Source of the DNA: a virus
Virus record (IMG/VR): IMGVR_UViG_3300022602_002721
Span: 7,688-71,687 of that record
DNA: 64,000 bases
Direction: 5' to 3' (one strand)
A program made the translations under genes and the position numbers. Under the pieces are notes generated by a model that saw only the letters and a list, made by a program, of their open reading frames with translations, ran no database searches and was not told where the DNA came from. Position 1 is the first letter of the stretch. Every line of letters begins with the position of its first letter. This document shows positions 7,513 to 43,973 of the stretch, piece after piece.

Positions 7513-9555
7513 TTACTTTTCATGAGCTATGAATTCTCCCTGCCAGTTATCTGGTAGGTCTTGTTGTTTCATAAAGTCGCAACGTTCAATCCATATCTTG
7601 TAGTACTTGTCCATCTGTCCGCCAAAGTTACCAATTAGCTTTTTACACATAGCGGCCGCTTCGTCAAACTTTTTCTGTTTGTACAAGGCATGCATCAATT
7701 CGTGTTGTACTTTATCTTTGGTATAATCAGCACCTTTAGTACGTAGTGCTGTGTAAATTAAATCTGCTACAGTTTTACCTTTTGGTTGTAAGTTATCTAA
7801 TAGCAAGTAAAAGAAGTTATCTTTGGTACGGTTGTAAGTTTCAGCACCAATGATACATAGCACACCATAAGCCTTACAACGAGCTTCTAAACGAGCAGCG
7901 GTTGAAACCATATCACCTAAGATGTCATAGCTGTGTCGTTCTGTTGAACCCATCTCACCGATAAATCCAATACCTGAATTACAGCCCCAGCCCATAGCGG
8001 CAGGAGGTAATCCTTGTGCTTCCATTATCTTAGTATACTCGTCTACCTTGTCTAGCATCTCTAAACCTACTTTAACGATAGTGTGAGCGTGGTTAGGATC
8101 TTCAATAGGAGCACCGTGTATGTGCATTGACGCATCGCCTACGTACTTGATAATCATACCCTTGTTATCTAGCATTGGCTGACTGATAGCATCCATATAA
8201 CCGTTCATGTACTTGCCTAGGCCAGCGACGTCATCGCCATAGTGTTCGCCAATAGGTGTAAAGCCACGCAGGTCACTGAACATAACTGATACGTCTTTAC
8301 GTACACCACGCTTGATTAGGTCTGGATCTTTTTGTAATAGCTCTACAACTTCTTTACTACAGTAACCTGCAAACTGTTTCTTAATTGCTTGTTTCTGTAA
8401 GAACTCGCTTATAAACTTAACACCATAAGCGTGAAGCATGACCAAAACAAGACCGCCGACCGGAAGAGTCGCATCCACGAGTTGGAGGCCACTGCTATAT
8501 GCGTATCCACATAAAGGAATAATAGAGCCAATGATAACAACACCCGATACAATACCAACATAAGTCCACCTTGTTAAAAATAATAATACGAGACCTGCTA
8601 CCAATAGTCCCAATATCTCTGCACCATCTGCCCAGTCAGGACGTTGTATAACCACACCGTTCATCATAGTTCCCACAGTTGCGGCAACTACATCCTGTGG
8701 CCATACTGCACCCTTGCTAGTTGGAATAGGATTACCTATACCTGCGGCAGTTGTTCCTAGGATAACAACAGCACCCTCTAGATCTTTAGGCAAATCGATT
8801 AGGCTAACTTGTTTGTTTTGTTGACTCCAGTCAATCCATATCCTACCCAAGCTGTCCGTGCTTATAGCTCCAAACTTGGGGATACGCATTTTCTCAACAC
8901 CATTTTCGTTGAGCTTGACTTGAAAAGTTGAATCGCCGGCCGCAACTCTGAGTGTCTCTAGAGCTATGCTCGGATATAATTTTCCATCGATAGTGGCTAT
9001 TAATGGTAGACGGCGATTCACCCCGTCAATCTCTGGCAGTGTGTTAGTTGTTCCAATACCCGCAGCTGGATTTTCTAACGCAGGTATGTTAGCGATCAAT
9101 CCGGGATATTGAAGTATAGTATCTAAATAGTTTGCCCCTATTACAGCAGATCCTGGCTGTCTAGGTGTATTCTTTGTTTTCTGCGAAGGAGTATTTGCTA
9201 GGACTACAGGGTACTTACTTAGAGCTTGACCCAGCGTAGTATCTCCACCAGAGCGATCTTGTTCGGGCATGAGTATATCAAATACAACAAGTCCCGCTCC
9301 CCTCTTATATAGATCTCGTATAATTTTGGCATATTCAGCTCTCGGTAAAGGCCATTGACCGTATTTGTCTAGTGTTGCTTCATCAATATTTACAGTTACG
9401 ATATTATTGAATGTAGGTGCCTTGGATGTAATAAGTGTGTCAAAATAACGTAGTCTTACGCTTTCAACAAATGAGGGATCTGCGATTCGTATGCCCACTA
9501 CCAACGCTAGAGTTAATAGAGCAGTCCATGGGCTCAAAAGGATTTTTTTCAGCAT
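7513..9555 (-). CDS. CHASE2-domain class III adenylate cyclase
   Basis: CHASE2 (IVTVNIDE..L..YGQWPLPRA), three TM helices, catalytic FSDLRGFT, KYVGD, YDILGDMVSTAARLE. Confidence 0.93.
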   Translation of the reverse strand: MLKKILLSPWTALLTLALVVGIRIADPSFVESVRLRYFDTLITSKAPTFNNIVTVNIDEATLDKYGQWPLPRAEYAKIIRDLYKRGAGLVVFDILMPEQDRSGGDTTLGQALSKYPVVLANTPSQKTKNTPRQPGSAVIGANYLDTILQYPGLIANIPALENPAAGIGTTNTLPEIDGVNRRLPLIATIDGKLYPSIALETLRVAAGDSTFQVKLNENGVEKMRIPKFGAISTDSLGRIWIDWSQQNKQVSLIDLPKDLEGAVVILGTTAAGIGNPIPTSKGAVWPQDVVAATVGTMMNGVVIQRPDWADGAEILGLLVAGLVLLFLTRWTYVGIVSGVVIIGSIIPLCGYAYSSGLQLVDATLPVGGLVLVMLHAYGVKFISEFLQKQAIKKQFAGYCSKEVVELLQKDPDLIKRGVRKDVSVMFSDLRGFTPIGEHYGDDVAGLGKYMNGYMDAISQPMLDNKGMIIKYVGDASMHIHGAPIEDPNHAHTIVKVGLEMLDKVDEYTKIMEAQGLPPAAMGWGCNSGIGFIGEMGSTERHSYDILGDMVSTAARLEARCKAYGVLCIIGAETYNRTKDNFFYLLLDNLQPKGKTVADLIYTALRTKGADYTKDKVQHELMHALYKQKKFDEAAAMCKKLIGNFGGQMDKYYKIWIERCDFMKQQDLPDNWQGEFIAHEK

Positions 9556-27982: not shown

Positions 27983-28426
27983 CTATTTATAGTTAAATTC
28001 CCACCTAGGATTATCATCGCTACGGCATGCTTCTTCTTGCCATTCTTTGACATTCCCACCTTTAGATACCTGTGATTGGTATGTACGGCAATAACCATTG
28101 CTGGTCTGATATCCATACACTACTCGCATACGACCAGAAACATCTGCGTTACGATCGCTGTACCATTCTACAGTTTGACCCATTGGAACATTTTCCAACA
28201 TGATCATAAGACTACGTTGATACACCTGCTTGTCCTGCCGGTCCAACAAGCCACCATTCCAGTGTGCGTAATTAACTATAAAGTCAATAAACCCGCTTAC
28301 TGGTCTTAGTGGACCTGTTACACTATCACCTGCGTTCAGAGGATCTGCAAACGCAAGTGTAGGTACTAGCAAACTAGTTATAAGTGTAGTTTGGAAGAAT
28401 TTCCCAAGCACCGTTAAACTTTTCAC
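27983..28426 (-). CDS. secreted protein with 17-kDa surface-antigen-like domain
   Basis: Signal peptide; G.TVEW...SG.......YCRTYQ.....ACR...W. Confidence 0.65.
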   Translation of the reverse strand: MKSLTVLGKFFQTTLITSLLVPTLAFADPLNAGDSVTGPLRPVSGFIDFIVNYAHWNGGLLDRQDKQVYQRSLMIMLENVPMGQTVEWYSDRNADVSGRMRVVYGYQTSNGYCRTYQSQVSKGGNVKEWQEEACRSDDNPRWEFNYK

Positions 28427-30778: not shown

Positions 30779-31285
30779 TCAGCTATTCAACACCTTGGCA
30801 ACACTATTCATTACAGCGGCAATACGTCCAATGTCACGAAGTTGTTCTACTGTGTATCCTTCCTTCTTCAATGTTTCGTAGTGCGCCTTGACGCAGAAAT
30901 GACACTTGCCAACAATACTTGCGGCAAGACTGAACGCTTCAAAGTTGCTCTTTGTAGTTCCGCCATGACTTGCGATTGCGTTCATGCGTAACTGTGCTGG
31001 CAAACCTTTTAGCTGTTCATCATCAGCCATTTCAACGTAAGGATACCAAATGTTGTTTTGGGCCATGAGGCTTGCGGCAGTCATCGCTGACTCTGCGTGT
31101 ACTGGCGCATCTGCTAATAGGATACTTAATACCTTACCGTTACCAGTTGCGGCCAATGCGGCTACAGCACAACCCCTGGCCACATCTGTATCTAAGGTAC
31201 TACGCAAAAGGACAGCGTCAAGATTTAACTTGGTGTCCTTTGCGTAGCCTGGCAACGCTTCTTTGATAGTGTCGTTGAATGCCAT
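30779..31285 (-). CDS. ahpD: alkyl hydroperoxide reductase AhpD
   Basis: LP.YAKD.KLNL, MAQNN..Y, LRMN, E...LAAS...KCHFCVKAH. Confidence 0.93.
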   Translation of the reverse strand: MAFNDTIKEALPGYAKDTKLNLDAVLLRSTLDTDVARGCAVAALAATGNGKVLSILLADAPVHAESAMTAASLMAQNNIWYPYVEMADDEQLKGLPAQLRMNAIASHGGTTKSNFEAFSLAASIVGKCHFCVKAHYETLKKEGYTVEQLRDIGRIAAVMNSVAKVLNS

Positions 31286-31824
31286 TATAGTGTCTCTCCG
31301 CCTACTGTACGGTTACATGCACATAGCTCGCCTGTTTGAAGAGCATCAAGGATACGCAAAGTTTCTTCTGGGCTACGGCCAACATTCAAATTGTTTACTG
31401 TAACATGTTGGATAACATTGTCTGGATCAACGATGAATGTAGCACGAAGTGCCGCACCTGCTGGAGCATAGAATACTCCCAACTGCTCGATCAATGATAA
31501 CTCACCACGCTGTGTGTCTGCAAATTGATTGTGACGAATGTTCTTTAAATCTGGATGTGCATTTTGCCATGCTAGTTTACAAAACTCGTTATCTGTGCTA
31601 CCTGTTAGTAGAACAGCATCACGATCGTCAAAGTCTGCGGCCAATTTATCATAAGCAACAATTTCTGTAGGGCAAACAAATGTAAAGTCCTTTGGGTAGT
31701 AAACGATTACTTTCCACTTGCCAGCAAAGCTCTCATCTGTAATGTCAAAGAACGCATCTTCTGGCTGACCAAACTTAACGCCTGTTACAGCAAATTTTTC
31801 TAATTTATGTCCAACTGTTTTCAT
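31285..31824 (-). CDS. ahpC: 2-Cys peroxiredoxin AhpC
   Basis: YPKDFTFVCPTE, RATFIVDP, VGR...E.LR.LDALQ..ELC. Confidence 0.96.
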   Translation of the reverse strand: MKTVGHKLEKFAVTGVKFGQPEDAFFDITDESFAGKWKVIVYYPKDFTFVCPTEIVAYDKLAADFDDRDAVLLTGSTDNEFCKLAWQNAHPDLKNIRHNQFADTQRGELSLIEQLGVFYAPAGAALRATFIVDPDNVIQHVTVNNLNVGRSPEETLRILDALQTGELCACNRTVGGETL

Positions 31825-31879: not shown

Positions 31880-31965
31880 ATTGTAATAGTATTTAATAAT
31901 AAGATCAACCGTTTTAATTGATTTTTTCAATAATTATTTTAATAACGCTTATTAGAAAAATCAAT
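31880..31965 (-). promoter_or_regulatory. ahpCD promoter with LysR/OxyR-like boxes
   Basis: TTGATC-17bp-TACAAT (31880-31908); ATTG-N7-CAAT (31917-31931) and ATTA-N7-CAAT (31951-31965) upstream of the -35. Confidence 0.55.
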
Positions 31966-31970
31966 AACGA

Positions 31971-32546
31971 TCAGCTGTATTCATATGGTGTGCTAGGGTG
32001 CCCATAATCCACAGGAATGTTATCACTCTTAACATTGTCGTAATTTTGGTAGTAGCTTTCATTTGGTTTAAGTATCCTAAAGTCTTTAGTATATTTCAAA
32101 CTAGCCAAAGTTACTTCGGACTTGTTTAACAAATCACATACCACGTACGAAGTGCTACATGCCGCACTGATATACTTAAATGGGCTATGCTTGTATTCAT
32201 TTTGAATTAGTCCTTTATGTATAGGTGAGTGAGGCAAGAACATGATACGAGTAATACCTAACTTTTGGTTACGTAATCGTAATTTGTCTAAAAATGTTAA
32301 TTCGGTGAGTGTAGCTTCGTTGTCGTCACTAACTCTTAATAAAGCGTTCTTGACTTTGATGCTACCTTTTGTGTGATTGTTATCAGGCGTTTCCTTAGTA
32401 CTCCAAGGTAGCTGACAATCCACATGATTTACATACAATGTTTCCCCATGAAATTTTAAGACCCACATAGGAATGGTCTGATCTTCTAAGTGTTTTTTAT
32501 TAAAATGGAAGACGATATCGCGGCATGCGTACTCTATCTATTTCAT
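31971..32546 (-). CDS. hypothetical protein with an in-frame amber (TAG) at codon 3
   Basis: AAGGA-N7-ATG AAA TAG ATA GAG TAC...; 23 further open codons lead in frame into the 165-aa ORF at 32468. Confidence 0.7.
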
Positions 32547-32562
32547 TTTGTTTTCCTTTAGT

Positions 32563-32630
32563 TAAGTGCAGGGCTTCCACCTACTTCCACCTCGTTTTAA
32601 AGTCCGCGTGTCCAGGACTTTTTATTTATA
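32563..32630 (-). promoter_or_regulatory. late promoter TATAAATA and structured leader
   Basis: TATAAATA at 32623-32630; AAAGTCC/GGACTTT hairpin; AGGTGGAAG twice. Confidence 0.55.
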
Positions 32631-32847
32631 CTGGTACTTCGATCAGTTGAAAAATTCGCCAATCTCTACGATCGGCTCGCTTTTCTTTCTTATCCTGCTC
32701 TTGTACATACTTCAAGAAGTTTTGAGCTTGCTCCATAGTACCATAGAAGTGTTCATTGCCATAAGCATAGCAACCTACTGAGCCGCTTTCGCCTTCCCAG
32801 TAGTGTCCTACAGCATAGTTGAATTGTTTAGATTGTTTCTTTGGCAT
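32626..32847 (-). CDS. hypothetical protein
   Basis: Start MPKKQSKQ just downstream of the tRNA CCA; the longer ORF-track start runs through the tRNA. Confidence 0.6.
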   Translation of the reverse strand: MPKKQSKQFNYAVGHYWEGESGSVGCYAYGNEHFYGTMEQAQNFLKYVQEQDKKEKRADRRDWRIFQLIEVPV

Positions 32848-32860
32848 GTGATACTTCAAT

Positions 32861-32937
32861 TGGTGCGTTGGATGGGAATCGAACCCACTACATGATGATT
32901 TAGAGTCACCTGCCCTTACCTTACGGGCTACCAACGC
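32861..32937 (-). tRNA. amber suppressor tRNA, anticodon CUA
   Basis: GCGTTGG-TA-GCCC-GTAAGGTAA-GGGC-A-GGTGA-CTCTAAA-TCATC-ATGTA-GTGGG-TTCGATT-CCCAT-CCAACGC-A-CCA: complete cloverleaf with encoded CCA. Confidence 0.93.
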
Positions 32938-32944
32938 AGTTTAA

Positions 32945-33328
32945 TTAAATTGACTTGTACAATGCTGTACTTGCTGTAAAGGCATGTTTCCATTGCCATT
33001 CGTCAAGTACCAATTGATTGAAGATTTGTTCTTCCAACTCAATTACATCATCGATGCTAAGTTCCAACATGCGGATAGCACGAGTGTAACTATCCTCATA
33101 GCTTACTGGGCGACTAGGCATAGCACGAATTTTAGCAATTTGTTCAAGGTCGCCTGTCTTAGCAAGTTCAACATGCTCTTTGGCTACTTTGATTGCGGCC
33201 TTTTTATAGTCCTTAACTGATTCGTCAAATTCTTTAACGTGCTTGATTTTGTTCTTGTTTACAATCTCTAGCAATTCTGCTTTGTTTACTTTTACTGATC
33301 TCATAACATTCCTTGTTTCGTCTCTCAT
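32945..33328 (-). CDS. hypothetical protein
   Basis: GAGG RBS; P.SY...Y.RAI.MLE....IEL....F..LVLDEW.W. Confidence 0.75.
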   Translation of the reverse strand: MRDETRNVMRSVKVNKAELLEIVNKNKIKHVKEFDESVKDYKKAAIKVAKEHVELAKTGDLEQIAKIRAMPSRPVSYEDSYTRAIRMLELSIDDVIELEEQIFNQLVLDEWQWKHAFTASTALYKSI

Positions 33329-33337
33329 AGATCCCTC

Positions 33338-34429
33338 TTAAAACGCATCGTAGTAAGAGTAAGACCGCTCTTGTACCTTGCTCAACACAAGTTGAACACC
33401 ATCTGGGTTAGCGAACACAAACTTACCTGCCTGGCTATCAATTTTCTTGATGTCGGCAGGATTAAACTTAATAGTGCTCCAATCCCAATCAAAGTCGCCG
33501 TCCTCATCCTTTGTATCATCGTATTCCTTGATGTGGACTTGTACTTGTCCTTGAAGCGGGTTACCGCTCCATTCACTACGTTCCAGATCATCTGCCTTAA
33601 CTTCTTCACCGTCTTTGATAACCTTCATAGTGAACTTGTTACCAGAATCAAATTCTGGCTTAACGTTCAACATACGCAGAGCATCTTGAGGTTCTTCATC
33701 GTAGCGATTCATTTCTTCAACAGTTGCTTTCAACATGTCGAAGTTAAATTGATTGAACAAGCTAGCAATTTGGCACAACTTTTCAGCATGATGCAAAAGT
33801 GTTGATTTCAAATTGTCGTTACAGTATTCCATGATAAAGTTAGTATCAAGGCCCTTGTAATCAATCATATAGAACAAGCGACCAGGACGGTTACGCATGT
33901 GTTGGTCGATGCGCCACTTGTCATTACAAGTCAATACAAACAGCTTCTTGCTAGGGAATACACCGTCCAACAGAGTAAGAGCTTGTTCTTGACTATCGCT
34001 ATCGTAGACCTTTTCAAACTCGTCAAACAGAACCATGCAAGGTTGTTCGATCATTTGCATAAAGGCATTGAACTTGTCGCCAACCCAAGGAGCATTGATA
34101 ACAATGCAAGGAATACCCAAACGCTTTGCGCCTTCGATGGCCAAATTCTTAGCAAGCAGACTCTTACCAGAACCTTTTTCTCCTGCCAACATAACACCGG
34201 TAGACGCTGTACGATCCATGAAGGTATTCAAGATACGATCAGTGTTCTTGTCCAAGTCGCCGTAACGCTTGCCTTTAATTTCAAATGACTCAATGTGTTC
34301 AAGGTAAAGAGGACCATCCATTGGCATCTCTTTAACCACGTAATTACCCGCAGGCAACTTTTCGTGGAGATCCATCGCTTCTTTAGTAGAAACTCGGAAA
34401 GTGTTACCTGACTTCAAAAAGTATGACAT
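33338..34429 (-). CDS. AAA+ ATPase
   Basis: GEKGSGKS Walker A, VLFDEFEK Walker B, NRPGR; promoter TAGACA-17bp-TATAAT upstream. Confidence 0.9.
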   Translation of the reverse strand: MSYFLKSGNTFRVSTKEAMDLHEKLPAGNYVVKEMPMDGPLYLEHIESFEIKGKRYGDLDKNTDRILNTFMDRTASTGVMLAGEKGSGKSLLAKNLAIEGAKRLGIPCIVINAPWVGDKFNAFMQMIEQPCMVLFDEFEKVYDSDSQEQALTLLDGVFPSKKLFVLTCNDKWRIDQHMRNRPGRLFYMIDYKGLDTNFIMEYCNDNLKSTLLHHAEKLCQIASLFNQFNFDMLKATVEEMNRYDEEPQDALRMLNVKPEFDSGNKFTMKVIKDGEEVKADDLERSEWSGNPLQGQVQVHIKEYDDTKDEDGDFDWDWSTIKFNPADIKKIDSQAGKFVFANPDGVQLVLSKVQERSYSYYDAF

Positions 34430-43542: not shown

Positions 43543-43632
43543 GTTTTAACTTCCTTTTTAATATAGTGACTATAATCACTCATATAGTATATATCCAGGA
43601 TACTACTGATGTCAAGTAAATTTGGGTCAAAG

Positions 43633-43655
43633 AAAAAGCACCCGAAGGTGCTTTT
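43633..43655 (-). terminator. terminator of the tmRNA gene
   Basis: AAAAAGCACC-CGAA-GGTGCTTTTT. Confidence 0.8.
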
Positions 43656-43656
43656 T

Positions 43657-43938
43657 GGTATTTTCTGTTACGAGGTATTTCCTACCCTAGTCAGCTGTTA
43701 AGCTGCCAATGCGTAAACGTTGTCGTTTGCGTTTATAGGTTTTGCTTGATTTACAGTCATCGCCTACTGTGTTGCCGTCTTCACTATCTCACCATGTCGA
43801 AACCAGGTCATCCCCATCAAAAACACATTCTGTTACATGTCACCGTTTCGCGCCTACGGTCGAATATGTTTTTGGTGGAGATGGGCGGAATCGAACCGCC
43901 GTCCACAGCGCCTTTGATCCAAAGGAATTACAACAATT
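43657..43938 (-). ncRNA. ssrA: circularly permuted (two-piece) tmRNA
   Basis: Acceptor piece ends GGCGG-TTCGATT-CCGCC-CATCTCC-A-CCA (43873); 57-nt intervening hairpin; coding piece starts GGGGATG (43815), G3:U70 pair; tag ANDNVYALAA* at 43730-43698. Outer ends approximate. Confidence 0.92.
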
Positions 43939-43944
43939 ACTGCT

Positions 43945-43973
43945 ATTATACATTTATTTTAATAGTCTGTCAA
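43945..43973 (-). promoter_or_regulatory. consensus sigma70 promoter of the tmRNA
   Basis: TTGACA-17bp-TATAAT. Confidence 0.88.

Follow-up and report, generated by a model that had tools for sequence, protein, structure and literature searches.

The stretch of DNA analysed here (the window, 64,000 nucleotides) comprises bases 7688-71687 of a 71.7-kb viral sequence from IMG/VR. On its minus strand it carries a tRNA gene with the anticodon CUA and, farther downstream, a gene whose reading frame is interrupted by an in-frame TAG at codon 3; we refer to this stop as the gate and to the gene and its product as gated. CheckV puts the completeness of the contig at ~20% and relatives reach 330-450 kb and, therefore, the window is a fragment of a jumbo, T4-like phage. 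The sequencing runs that contain the stretch are lake-water and freshwater metagenomes, with no RNA run listed among them, and a nucleotide search of a phage collection with window bases 31900-33400 gave no match. The features of the locus, in 5' to 3' order, are the following.

32861-32937, minus strand: tRNA(CUA), 77 nt, with anticodon loop CUCUAAA, acceptor pairs G1-C72, C2-G71 and G3-C70, A73 and an encoded CCA (ends ...CGCACCA); found by ARAGORN and Rfam
32626-32847, minus strand: open reading frame (ORF) of 73 amino acids (aa) between the tRNA and the gated gene, taken from the ORF list; its stop overlaps the TATAAATA motif
32623-32630, minus strand: TATAAATA motif, late-promoter-like, read from the sequence
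32599-32621, minus strand: hairpin AAAGTCC-N9-GGACTTT, 7 bp, upstream of the Shine-Dalgarno sequence; read by eye, with no folding tool
32554-32558, minus strand: Shine-Dalgarno (SD) sequence AAGGA, with a 7-nt spacer to the leader ATG
32538-32546, minus strand: leader ATG-AAA-TAG (ATG 32544-32546, AAA 32541-32543, TAG 32538-32540), in which UAG is codon 3
32298-32537, minus strand: N-terminal domain of the gated protein (N-domain), residues 1-80 after the UAG, beta-rich and the most conserved part; it includes the 23 codons ahead of the ATG at 32468
31971-32297, minus strand: C-terminal domain (C-domain), residues 81-188, and the TGA stop; a ferredoxin-like alpha/beta fold with an acidic or aromatic tail in the AlphaFold2 model

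This anatomy around the tRNA(CUA) and the leader TAG is confirmed. The tRNA is the only one that ARAGORN finds in the window (32861-32937, minus strand, anticodon cta), its 'Pyl' label stems from the anticodon alone, and Rfam scores it at 58.4 bits against RF00005, for which the gathering score is 29. Both programs agree with the sequence-only reading, an earlier description of the window made by a model without database searches, in which a complete tRNA with CUA anticodon and encoded CCA had been recognized. The same description had placed a gated start about 310 bp downstream of the tRNA; AAGGA-ATG-AAA-TAG stands as it was read, and the gap from tRNA to leader ATG, on the same strand, is 314 nt and mostly taken up by the 73-aa ORF, which had gone unmentioned. 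Past the TAG at 32538-32540, ATA GAG TAC GCA TGC opens a run of 188 codons in frame with a 165-aa ORF and ending at 31971. The first canonical start in this run, ATG 32468, lies 23 codons in and has no SD or GGAG-like motif before it, as had been supposed when the 165-aa ORF was said to lack a clear ribosome-binding site.

The suspicion that the TAG might be an assembly error, also raised in the sequence-only reading, was met by Logan contigs of two runs, which bridge 32538-32540 without differing letters (X1, piece 32481-32616; X3, piece 32521-32688). Among the assembled contigs of the four runs compared, one of which (X1) may be the source sample itself, no variant is recorded at the TAG. 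A scan for similar starts, suggested at the same time, returned the gated gene as the sole case in the 71.7-kb contig of an SD, an ATG, at most 12 codons, a TAG and a long ORF with a late canonical start. Across 1.69 Mb of related loci, we counted 62 distinct cases in which an SD-ATG is followed by at most nine codons, a TAG and no fewer than 70 open codons, as opposed to 11 such cases with TGA and five with TAA; the TAG cases are made up of 53 members of the gated-gene family, two of a PTH2-like gene and seven others.

Conservation of the leader stop and of the linked tRNA

Relatives of the gated gene were collected in two batches. A scan of IMG/VR with the read-through protein gave 58 loci, one of which (L056) is without the N-terminus and was left out of the N-terminal count, and a wider profile of distant members gave 370 IMG/VR relatives, 80 loci of which were used, with L096 dropped for an unmatched motif pattern. 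Both batches and the window, with identical sequences collapsed, amount to 96 distinct alleles. In the first batch, the in-frame TAG is present in all 57 loci with an N-terminus; 1-8 variable codons lead up to it from an ATG with an SD, and the conserved IE[YF]AC..VFHFNKKHLEDQTIPMW follows it directly. The homologues thus do not all start at MWVLK, the outcome that would have spoken against the sequence-only reading; they include the segment upstream of it. Over both batches and the window, the TAG is present in 88 of the 96 alleles and absent from 8. It comes early, after a leader of 2-4 codons in 84 of the 88 (two codons in 61, three in 9, four in 14), after nine codons in two, and in the other two after a leader that reads MSM. 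Leaders differ in sequence as well as length (MK, MS, MA, MTQ, MSQQ and others), and the SD spacing in the relatives tracks the leader ATG, not the codon after the TAG, at any leader length. That codon is ATT in 72 alleles, ATA in 5, ATC in 5, GTA in 3 and ACT in 3, so that the fourth base, the one directly behind the TAG, is A in 85/88 and G in 3.

The segment after the TAG is coding, since the major-allele frequency over the 30 codons past it is 0.90, 0.94 and 0.71 at codon positions 1, 2 and 3, respectively, with the TAG invariant; this analysis used the 80 of the 88 TAG alleles that have no indel between the TAG and FHFNK. In the family alignment, 31 columns are invariant, all of them inside the first 75 residues after the UAG. 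The residues right after the TAG form strand 2-12, the first beta-strand of the N-domain in the AlphaFold2 model (pLDDT 96.7), and a protein begun at Met-24 would be without the conserved residues of this strand. As a terminator, TAG occurs in none of 41 complete distinct family genes. Many database entries of the family begin either at Met-24 or, with GTG or another non-ATG start, nine codons past the gate; such truncated entries come from long contigs.

The tRNA accompanies the gene. In 38 of the 58 first-batch loci, ARAGORN places a tRNA(CUA) on the same strand as the gene and at most 3 kb from it. L058:2744-2820 and L059:1539-1615 hold a tRNA with an odd 6- or 8-nt loop containing CUA, from which ARAGORN reads a 2-nt anticodon; these loci also encode the most divergent members of the family (an 84-aa protein). 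For the remaining 18 loci, whole records were searched with a covariance model of the tRNA, L058 and L059 lying outside this search, and 16 records returned one outstanding match each (72.6-92.5 bits, the next class reaching 66 bits at most). Fourteen of these matches are called cta by ARAGORN and the other two read CUCUAAA by eye, while the two records with no match are cut by the contig end at or inside the gene. The tRNA(CUA) is thereby found in 54 of 56 testable first-batch contigs. In the second batch, ARAGORN detects it in 64/79 loci; it shares the strand of the gene in each of them and in most stands 130-1400 nt upstream. L167-L169 resemble a Rhizobium phage described below in having the tRNA(CUA) on the downstream side of the gated gene, ~545 nt past the motif.

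We compared 82 distinct relatives of the tRNA(CUA) (L002-L171), with identical sequences collapsed. Of these, 62 have the anticodon loop CUCUAAA and 19 have UUCUAAA; G1-C72 is present in 81, C2-G71 in 78, G3-C70 in 70 and A73 in 73. Acceptor pairs 1-7 are standard in 81-82 of the 82, with compensatory changes at pairs 4-7, and anticodon-stem pairs 28-30 covary. These sequence features are those expected of a functional tRNA of the amber-suppressor type. Pair 31-39 is non-standard in 58/82 (C.A in 38, A.C in 13; the window's own copy has A-U) and, therefore, the anticodon stem is effectively 4 bp in these. A comparison with 220 other distinct phage tRNAs gave no parent isotype, the best mean identity to another class being 0.69 compared to 0.72 within the family. 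Since the tRNA shows no isotype affinity, the residue inserted at the UAG is unreadable from sequence, as the sequence-only reading had held; by default charging we would guess that it is presumably Lys or Gln.

Gate codon and anticodon in cultured phages

A tblastn search of the phage collection located the N-domain in three cultured phages, RHph_I1_18, Atu_ph07 and Phosso, by way of four records, two of which are of Atu_ph07. The Rhizobium phage RHph_I1_18 (171 kb, MN988519.1) has an unannotated family ORF of 83 codons (L062:3978-4227), MSEFM-TAG-NESCREVIFHFNK..., whose sixth codon is the in-frame TAG. AAC, which is no start codon, comes next, and an annotated tRNA-Pyl(cta) starts 10 nt past the stop of the ORF.

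In Atu_ph07 and Phosso (470-490 kb), the N-domain makes up the C-terminal part of a longer protein, encoded by the third and last gene of an operon in which stops and starts overlap. The first gene of this operon encodes a PTH2 peptidyl-tRNA hydrolase (73.9 and 72.9 bits, respectively, with a cut-off of 23), annotated in each case from an internal ATG (L060:2932-3381 in Atu_ph07, L061:2884-3378 in Phosso). In both phages the PTH2 profile match begins upstream of the annotated ATG, and an SD-ATG leader is also found upstream. Read from that leader, the Atu_ph07 gene is MIGEHF-TGA-INYEE..., with the TGA at codon 7, and according to its genome report the sole suppressor tRNA of this phage has the anticodon UCA (PMC6102473), with which ARAGORN here agrees. 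The Phosso orthologue, 72% identical to that of Atu_ph07, is MKY-TAG-VEEK..., and this phage has a tRNA(cta); no other tRNA is annotated as reading a stop in a 47-kb stretch that holds most of the Phosso tRNAs. Gate codon and anticodon therefore change together between Atu_ph07 (TGA/UCA) and Phosso (TAG/CUA). This co-change favours suppression of the stop, which predicts it, over re-initiation behind the stop, which does not.

A search for a gated gene immediately behind the suppressor tRNA of Atu_ph07 and that of Phosso was negative. In Phosso, the tRNA(cta) is followed at once by a 1.3-kb unannotated, G+C-rich stretch (446807-448102; L198:2108-3403) with no convincing ORF, even when TAG is read through, which may be a structured RNA.

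A gate on a PTH2-like gene is found in some relatives as well. In L110:9625-9999 and L099:8881-9257, a PTH2-like gene is headed by a leader that reads MK*I and MA*I, respectively, and its stop abuts the start of a family gene that is itself without TAG, and the leader cassette looks as if it can move from one gene of the operon to another. Elsewhere PTH2 stands without a gate, as in the relatives G019 and G020 and in phage XacN1. The Pfam PTH2 domain is absent from the near-complete relatives G010 and G004, and a PTH2-like gene was sought and not found in the window's contig, which covers ~20% of the genome.

Reading of the stop and competing explanations

We consider it likely that the leader UAG is read by the phage's own tRNA so as to make the full protein, with the standard code in force elsewhere in the genome. 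The tRNA and the gene would then form a two-part translational module, composed of a UAG-reading tRNA and a member of a large, phage-specific and unnamed family. A ribosome would initiate at the good SD and ATG, make Met-Lys and meet the UAG at codon 3. Where charged tRNA(CUA) beats release factor 1 (RF1), translation would go on into the 188-residue, two-domain protein; where the UAG is left unsuppressed, only a dipeptide would be released. Because the UAG must be read by charged tRNA(CUA), output of the protein would be tied to the activity of the phage suppressor tRNA, and the leader stop could act as a feed-forward or feedback sensor of read-through.

Suppression that is local to one gene, as the sequence-only reading had proposed, is supported comparatively by the 88/96 alleles with TAG, by the coding segment behind it, by the linked tRNA, by the joint change of PTH2 gate and anticodon and by a complete relative of 364 kb, G010. 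In G010, the family gene is the one convincing leader-TAG gene. No mid-gene TAG with coding sequence on both sides was found there, the same-frame junctions being seven TAA and one TGA. TAG still ends genes: among ORFs of at least 200 codons it is the stop in 4/190 in G010 and 3/42 in this contig, and a 147-aa ORF of the window ends with TAG at 27983, directly ahead of the ATG of the next gene. Since G010 has no other such gene and TAG continues to end genes, the phage does not use code 15 (TAG read as Gln), in agreement with the first description, in which a global change of code had been discounted. TAG stops are conserved between orthologues of this contig and G010 in only 1/6 cases, and the extensions behind them look non-coding. 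Programmed read-through of TAG-terminated genes was rejected on account of this lack of conservation.

Several observations weigh against reading of the gate by the tRNA(CUA). First, every one of the eight TAG-less alleles, which come from nine loci (L093, L094, L095, L097, L098, L099, L106, L110 and L128) and begin, for example, MTVEIACK, MIELACR, MTTEIACK, MVELACD, MEMVCKE or MTEIFCDE, retains a tRNA(CUA) ahead of the gene and on its strand; this codon therefore cannot be the only reason why the tRNA is kept, and the gate is dispensable. Second, TAG ends 5/63 ORFs of at least 150 codons in this contig and 11/270 in G010, which a strong suppressor would extend. Third, no tRNA(CUA) is called by ARAGORN in 15/79 second-batch loci, several of which are truncated near the gene and at least one of which (L114) is an ARAGORN miss. 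Fourth, many public proteins (P0152-P0183), whose records all come from short contigs, have Q in the place of the gate (MKQIEYAC, MTKQ.., MAQ..); these records are probably code-15 gene calls. Lastly, the codon after the TAG is ATT, ATA or ATC in 82/88 alleles, all of which are weak start codons.

Because the TAG-less alleles retain tRNA(CUA), the association of the tRNA with the protein goes back further than the gate and is closer. Among them, L097/L098 (a 453-kb phage record) has two tandem tRNA(CUA) genes, at 9322-9477, upstream of its TAG-less family gene. One possible explanation, which refines rather than replaces local suppression and which we put forward tentatively, is that the tRNA mainly reads through other UAG stops, in host or phage genes, or diverts host anticodon nucleases as a decoy, and that the gated protein only reports on or regulates that state. 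The retained tRNA, its doubling in L097/L098, the PTH2 genes in the same operon in other phages and, suggestively only, a phage transfer-messenger RNA (tmRNA) that is encoded in the window and directly beside the module in several relatives are in keeping with such a wider role. Against it speaks that the TAG stops of phage genes are so poorly conserved between this contig and G010 and run into sequence that looks non-coding.

The family protein itself probably works with the tRNA or with UAG decoding. This is suggested by the tRNA that stays where the UAG is gone, together with an operon-mate, PTH2, that is gated in other phages; on these grounds the suppressor tRNA, or the decoding of UAG, would be its target or its partner. 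A still more speculative and rather doubtful extension is that tRNA(CUA), leader UAG, two-domain protein and, in other phages, PTH2 make up a self-sensing circuit by which jumbo and T4-like phages set up and meter controlled amber read-through in the infected cell. In such a circuit the protein would be a dedicated partner of the suppressor tRNA or of UAG decoding and might, for example, serve as a stabiliser, regulate a deacylase or antagonise RF1. Its own synthesis would report how efficient read-through is, much as that of release factor 2 reports termination at UGA, and the nearby phage tmRNA would handle ribosomes stranded on host messages.

A different account dispenses with suppression altogether: ATG-AAA-TAG would be a mini-ORF, after which ribosomes re-initiate at the adjacent AUA or AUU to make fMet-Glu-Tyr-Ala-Cys..., and the tRNA would have another job. 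The weak start codons named above fit this account. At this place the proteins of TAG-less relatives open with M-[ILV]-E or M-T-[VT]-E, so that a protein started here would be nearly native; the tRNA that outlasts the TAG speaks for re-initiation as well. We nevertheless judge re-initiation improbable. The codons ACT (3 alleles), GTA (3) and, in RHph_I1_18, AAC stand after the TAG and are no start codons, and the SD stands at a distance suited to the leader ATG, with 13 to more than 30 nt between it and the post-TAG codon. Re-initiation also leaves unexplained why the stop is TAG in all 88 alleles and never TAA or TGA, why a tRNA(CUA) is linked to the gene, and why the gate switches to TGA where the phage tRNA is UCA.

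If the UAG is read by the phage tRNA, the gated gene could still be the first of many in an early or partial stage of a genome-wide reassignment of TAG (code 15), an idea that the sequence-only reading had entertained. Phage suppressor tRNAs and depletion of TAG are proposed, in a study on recoded phages, to be precursors of recoding (10.1101/2021.08.26.457843), and TAG is indeed rare as a stop in G010 and in this contig (the 4/190 and 3/42 ORFs above). Against this stand the single gene per genome (one convincing leader TAG and no mid-gene TAG in G010, one in this contig), the TAG that continues to terminate genes, and the retention of the same single position down to ~50% protein identity and in the 171-kb Rhizobium phage. 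Because that position is kept across alleles so far diverged, the one-codon state is stable and not a transition, which makes an early stage of recoding very improbable. That the TAG is a sequencing or assembly error or marks a dead gene is scarcely credible, with nothing in its favour except the stop codon itself, 88 independent alleles that retain the TAG and an intact ORF under a pattern like that of purifying selection, and a site unchanged in contigs of two runs; the comparative data make a sequencing error untenable.

The gated protein, known systems and neighbouring features

The gated protein belongs to a large family with the N-domain signature FHFNKKHLED..IPMW..STKETPDN..TKGS. A search of 1.84 billion representatives with a profile of the family yielded 173 proteins at E<=1e-3, of which 39 reach E<=1e-30. 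Among 5.8 billion proteins the family has 1425 clusters at E<=1e-5, in addition to the 370 relatives in IMG/VR; where the source gives a name, members are called 'hypothetical protein'. The protein has no Pfam or PHROG match, its best E-value against PDB sequence profiles is 0.4, and Foldseek returned no match in PDB at E<=1e-3 for either the whole model or the model of the N-domain. AlphaFold2 modelled the whole protein with a pLDDT of 82.2 and the N-domain alone with 96.7. The best VIA-align match of the N-domain among solved structures, at Z 3.4, is unconvincing. The C-domain, which is missing from family members of 84-110 aa, has ACT/RRM-like ferredoxin matches (best Z 6.0, rmsd 3.3, 75 residues aligned); with Z at 6.0 or below, these were too weak to give the domain an ACT/RRM family name. 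In the ESM Atlas the best cosine for the protein, 0.80, is at the level of chance. A predicted complex of the gated protein with Escherichia coli RF1 scored 0.00, which counts neither for nor against binding.

Phages that recode a stop codon are the closest known parallel. CrAss-like, Lak and other phages with TAG reassigned to Gln carry suppressor tRNAs and 'code change modules', and recoding is proposed to time the late genes (10.1101/2021.08.26.457843). Like those described there, the module of the window combines a phage tRNA(CUA), a host with the standard code and gene expression that would depend on the tRNA via an in-frame TAG; the idea that recoding regulates timing is common to both. 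Recoded phages differ in the tens to hundreds of in-frame TAGs in their structural and lysis genes and in the loss of TAG as a terminator. In the present module, each genome has a single such TAG, always 1-8 codons past the start of one family (or of the operon-mate PTH2), TAG still ends genes, and the tRNA is physically linked to its client.

Two other reports concern standard-code jumbo phages with stop-reading tRNAs. XacN1 has two CUA tRNAs, and a search of amber stops at gene ends is reported to have given no target (PMC5852040). The report on Atu_ph07 names no target of the UCA tRNA and notes that UGA stops are abundant in phage and host, so that several genes are possible (PMC6102473). 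The client proposed here is instead a stop at the start of a gene, and the candidate client in Atu_ph07 is the TGA at codon 7 of PTH2. A full-text literature search, supplementary tables excepted, found no description of a leader stop gated by a phage suppressor tRNA in a standard-code phage.

Among cellular genes, prfB, which encodes release factor 2, has an early in-frame UGA that is passed by a +1 frameshift, and the product is the release factor itself. The two systems share an early in-frame stop, and synthesis of the prfB product reports how well its own stop is decoded. In the gated gene, by comparison, the frame is unchanged, a dedicated tRNA would read the stop, and the product is without a known family. 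Pyrrolysine and selenocysteine recoding also pair a dedicated stop-reading tRNA with a single conserved stop in one gene family, under an otherwise standard code; the stop of the gated gene differs in belonging to a variable leader instead of a catalytic site, and 8/96 alleles do without it. The tRNA for pyrrolysine has a 6-bp anticodon stem and no T-psi-C sequence. This architecture is absent from the tRNA(CUA), which has an anticodon stem of at most five standard pairs, the T-loop GGTTCGATTCC and an ordinary cloverleaf with a GTTCGAWT T-loop. Pfam searches of six ORFs around the tRNA returned an AAA ATPase, AhpC, CMD or nothing, and no gene like pylS, pylBCD, selA or selB was seen, with no dedicated search made and a contig that holds ~20% of the genome.

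The leader also resembles a minigene. The toxicity of the lambda bar minigenes depends on Pth, and the gated leader shares with minigenes and other start-stop leaders an ORF of 2-4 codons behind a strong SD and, in related phages, a link to peptidyl-tRNA hydrolase. It differs in that the stop is always the one that the phage's own tRNA would read and in that the frame runs on into a conserved protein.

If the UAG is read in this way, the module indicates where one client of orphan suppressor tRNAs is, namely at a stop 1-8 codons past the start of a conserved gene. It would constitute a natural, one-codon switch, operated by a tRNA and widespread in lake and soil phages (1425 protein clusters), and a compact natural pair of orthogonal tRNA and leader that may interest those who engineer the genetic code. 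The extremely conserved N-domain is a candidate new player in the biology of tRNA or termination. Gene callers systematically truncate or miss gated genes, as illustrated by the unannotated ORF of RHph_I1_18 and by the PTH2 genes of Atu_ph07 and Phosso, which are called from an internal ATG. Given that three cultured phages carry versions of the system, the switch is directly testable.

Other features of the locus are less constant. The TATAAATA motif at 32623-32630 resembles the consensus of a T4-type late promoter. It occurs at most 160 nt upstream of the TAG in just 10/88 alleles and is therefore a weak feature, while TAAATA is found there in 51/88. Words rich in G and C like those of the hairpin (GTCCCC) precede the SD in several relatives. 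The 73-aa ORF has no Pfam or PHROG match; tblastn copies 83-93% identical to it adjoin the tRNA(CUA) in some relatives (e.g. L067, L020 and L074), and it is absent from most.

Directly downstream of the gated gene, genes for an AhpC-type peroxiredoxin and an AhpD/CMD-family protein overlap (window 30779-31824, minus strand; Pfam). Farther away, at window 43607-43965 on the minus strand, lies a permuted, two-piece tmRNA with the tag ANDNVYALAA (ARAGORN; Rfam beta_tmRNA, 176.8 bits), and in the relatives L005, L037, L038, L040, L069 and L074 a phage tmRNA directly adjoins the module of tRNA(CUA) and gated gene.

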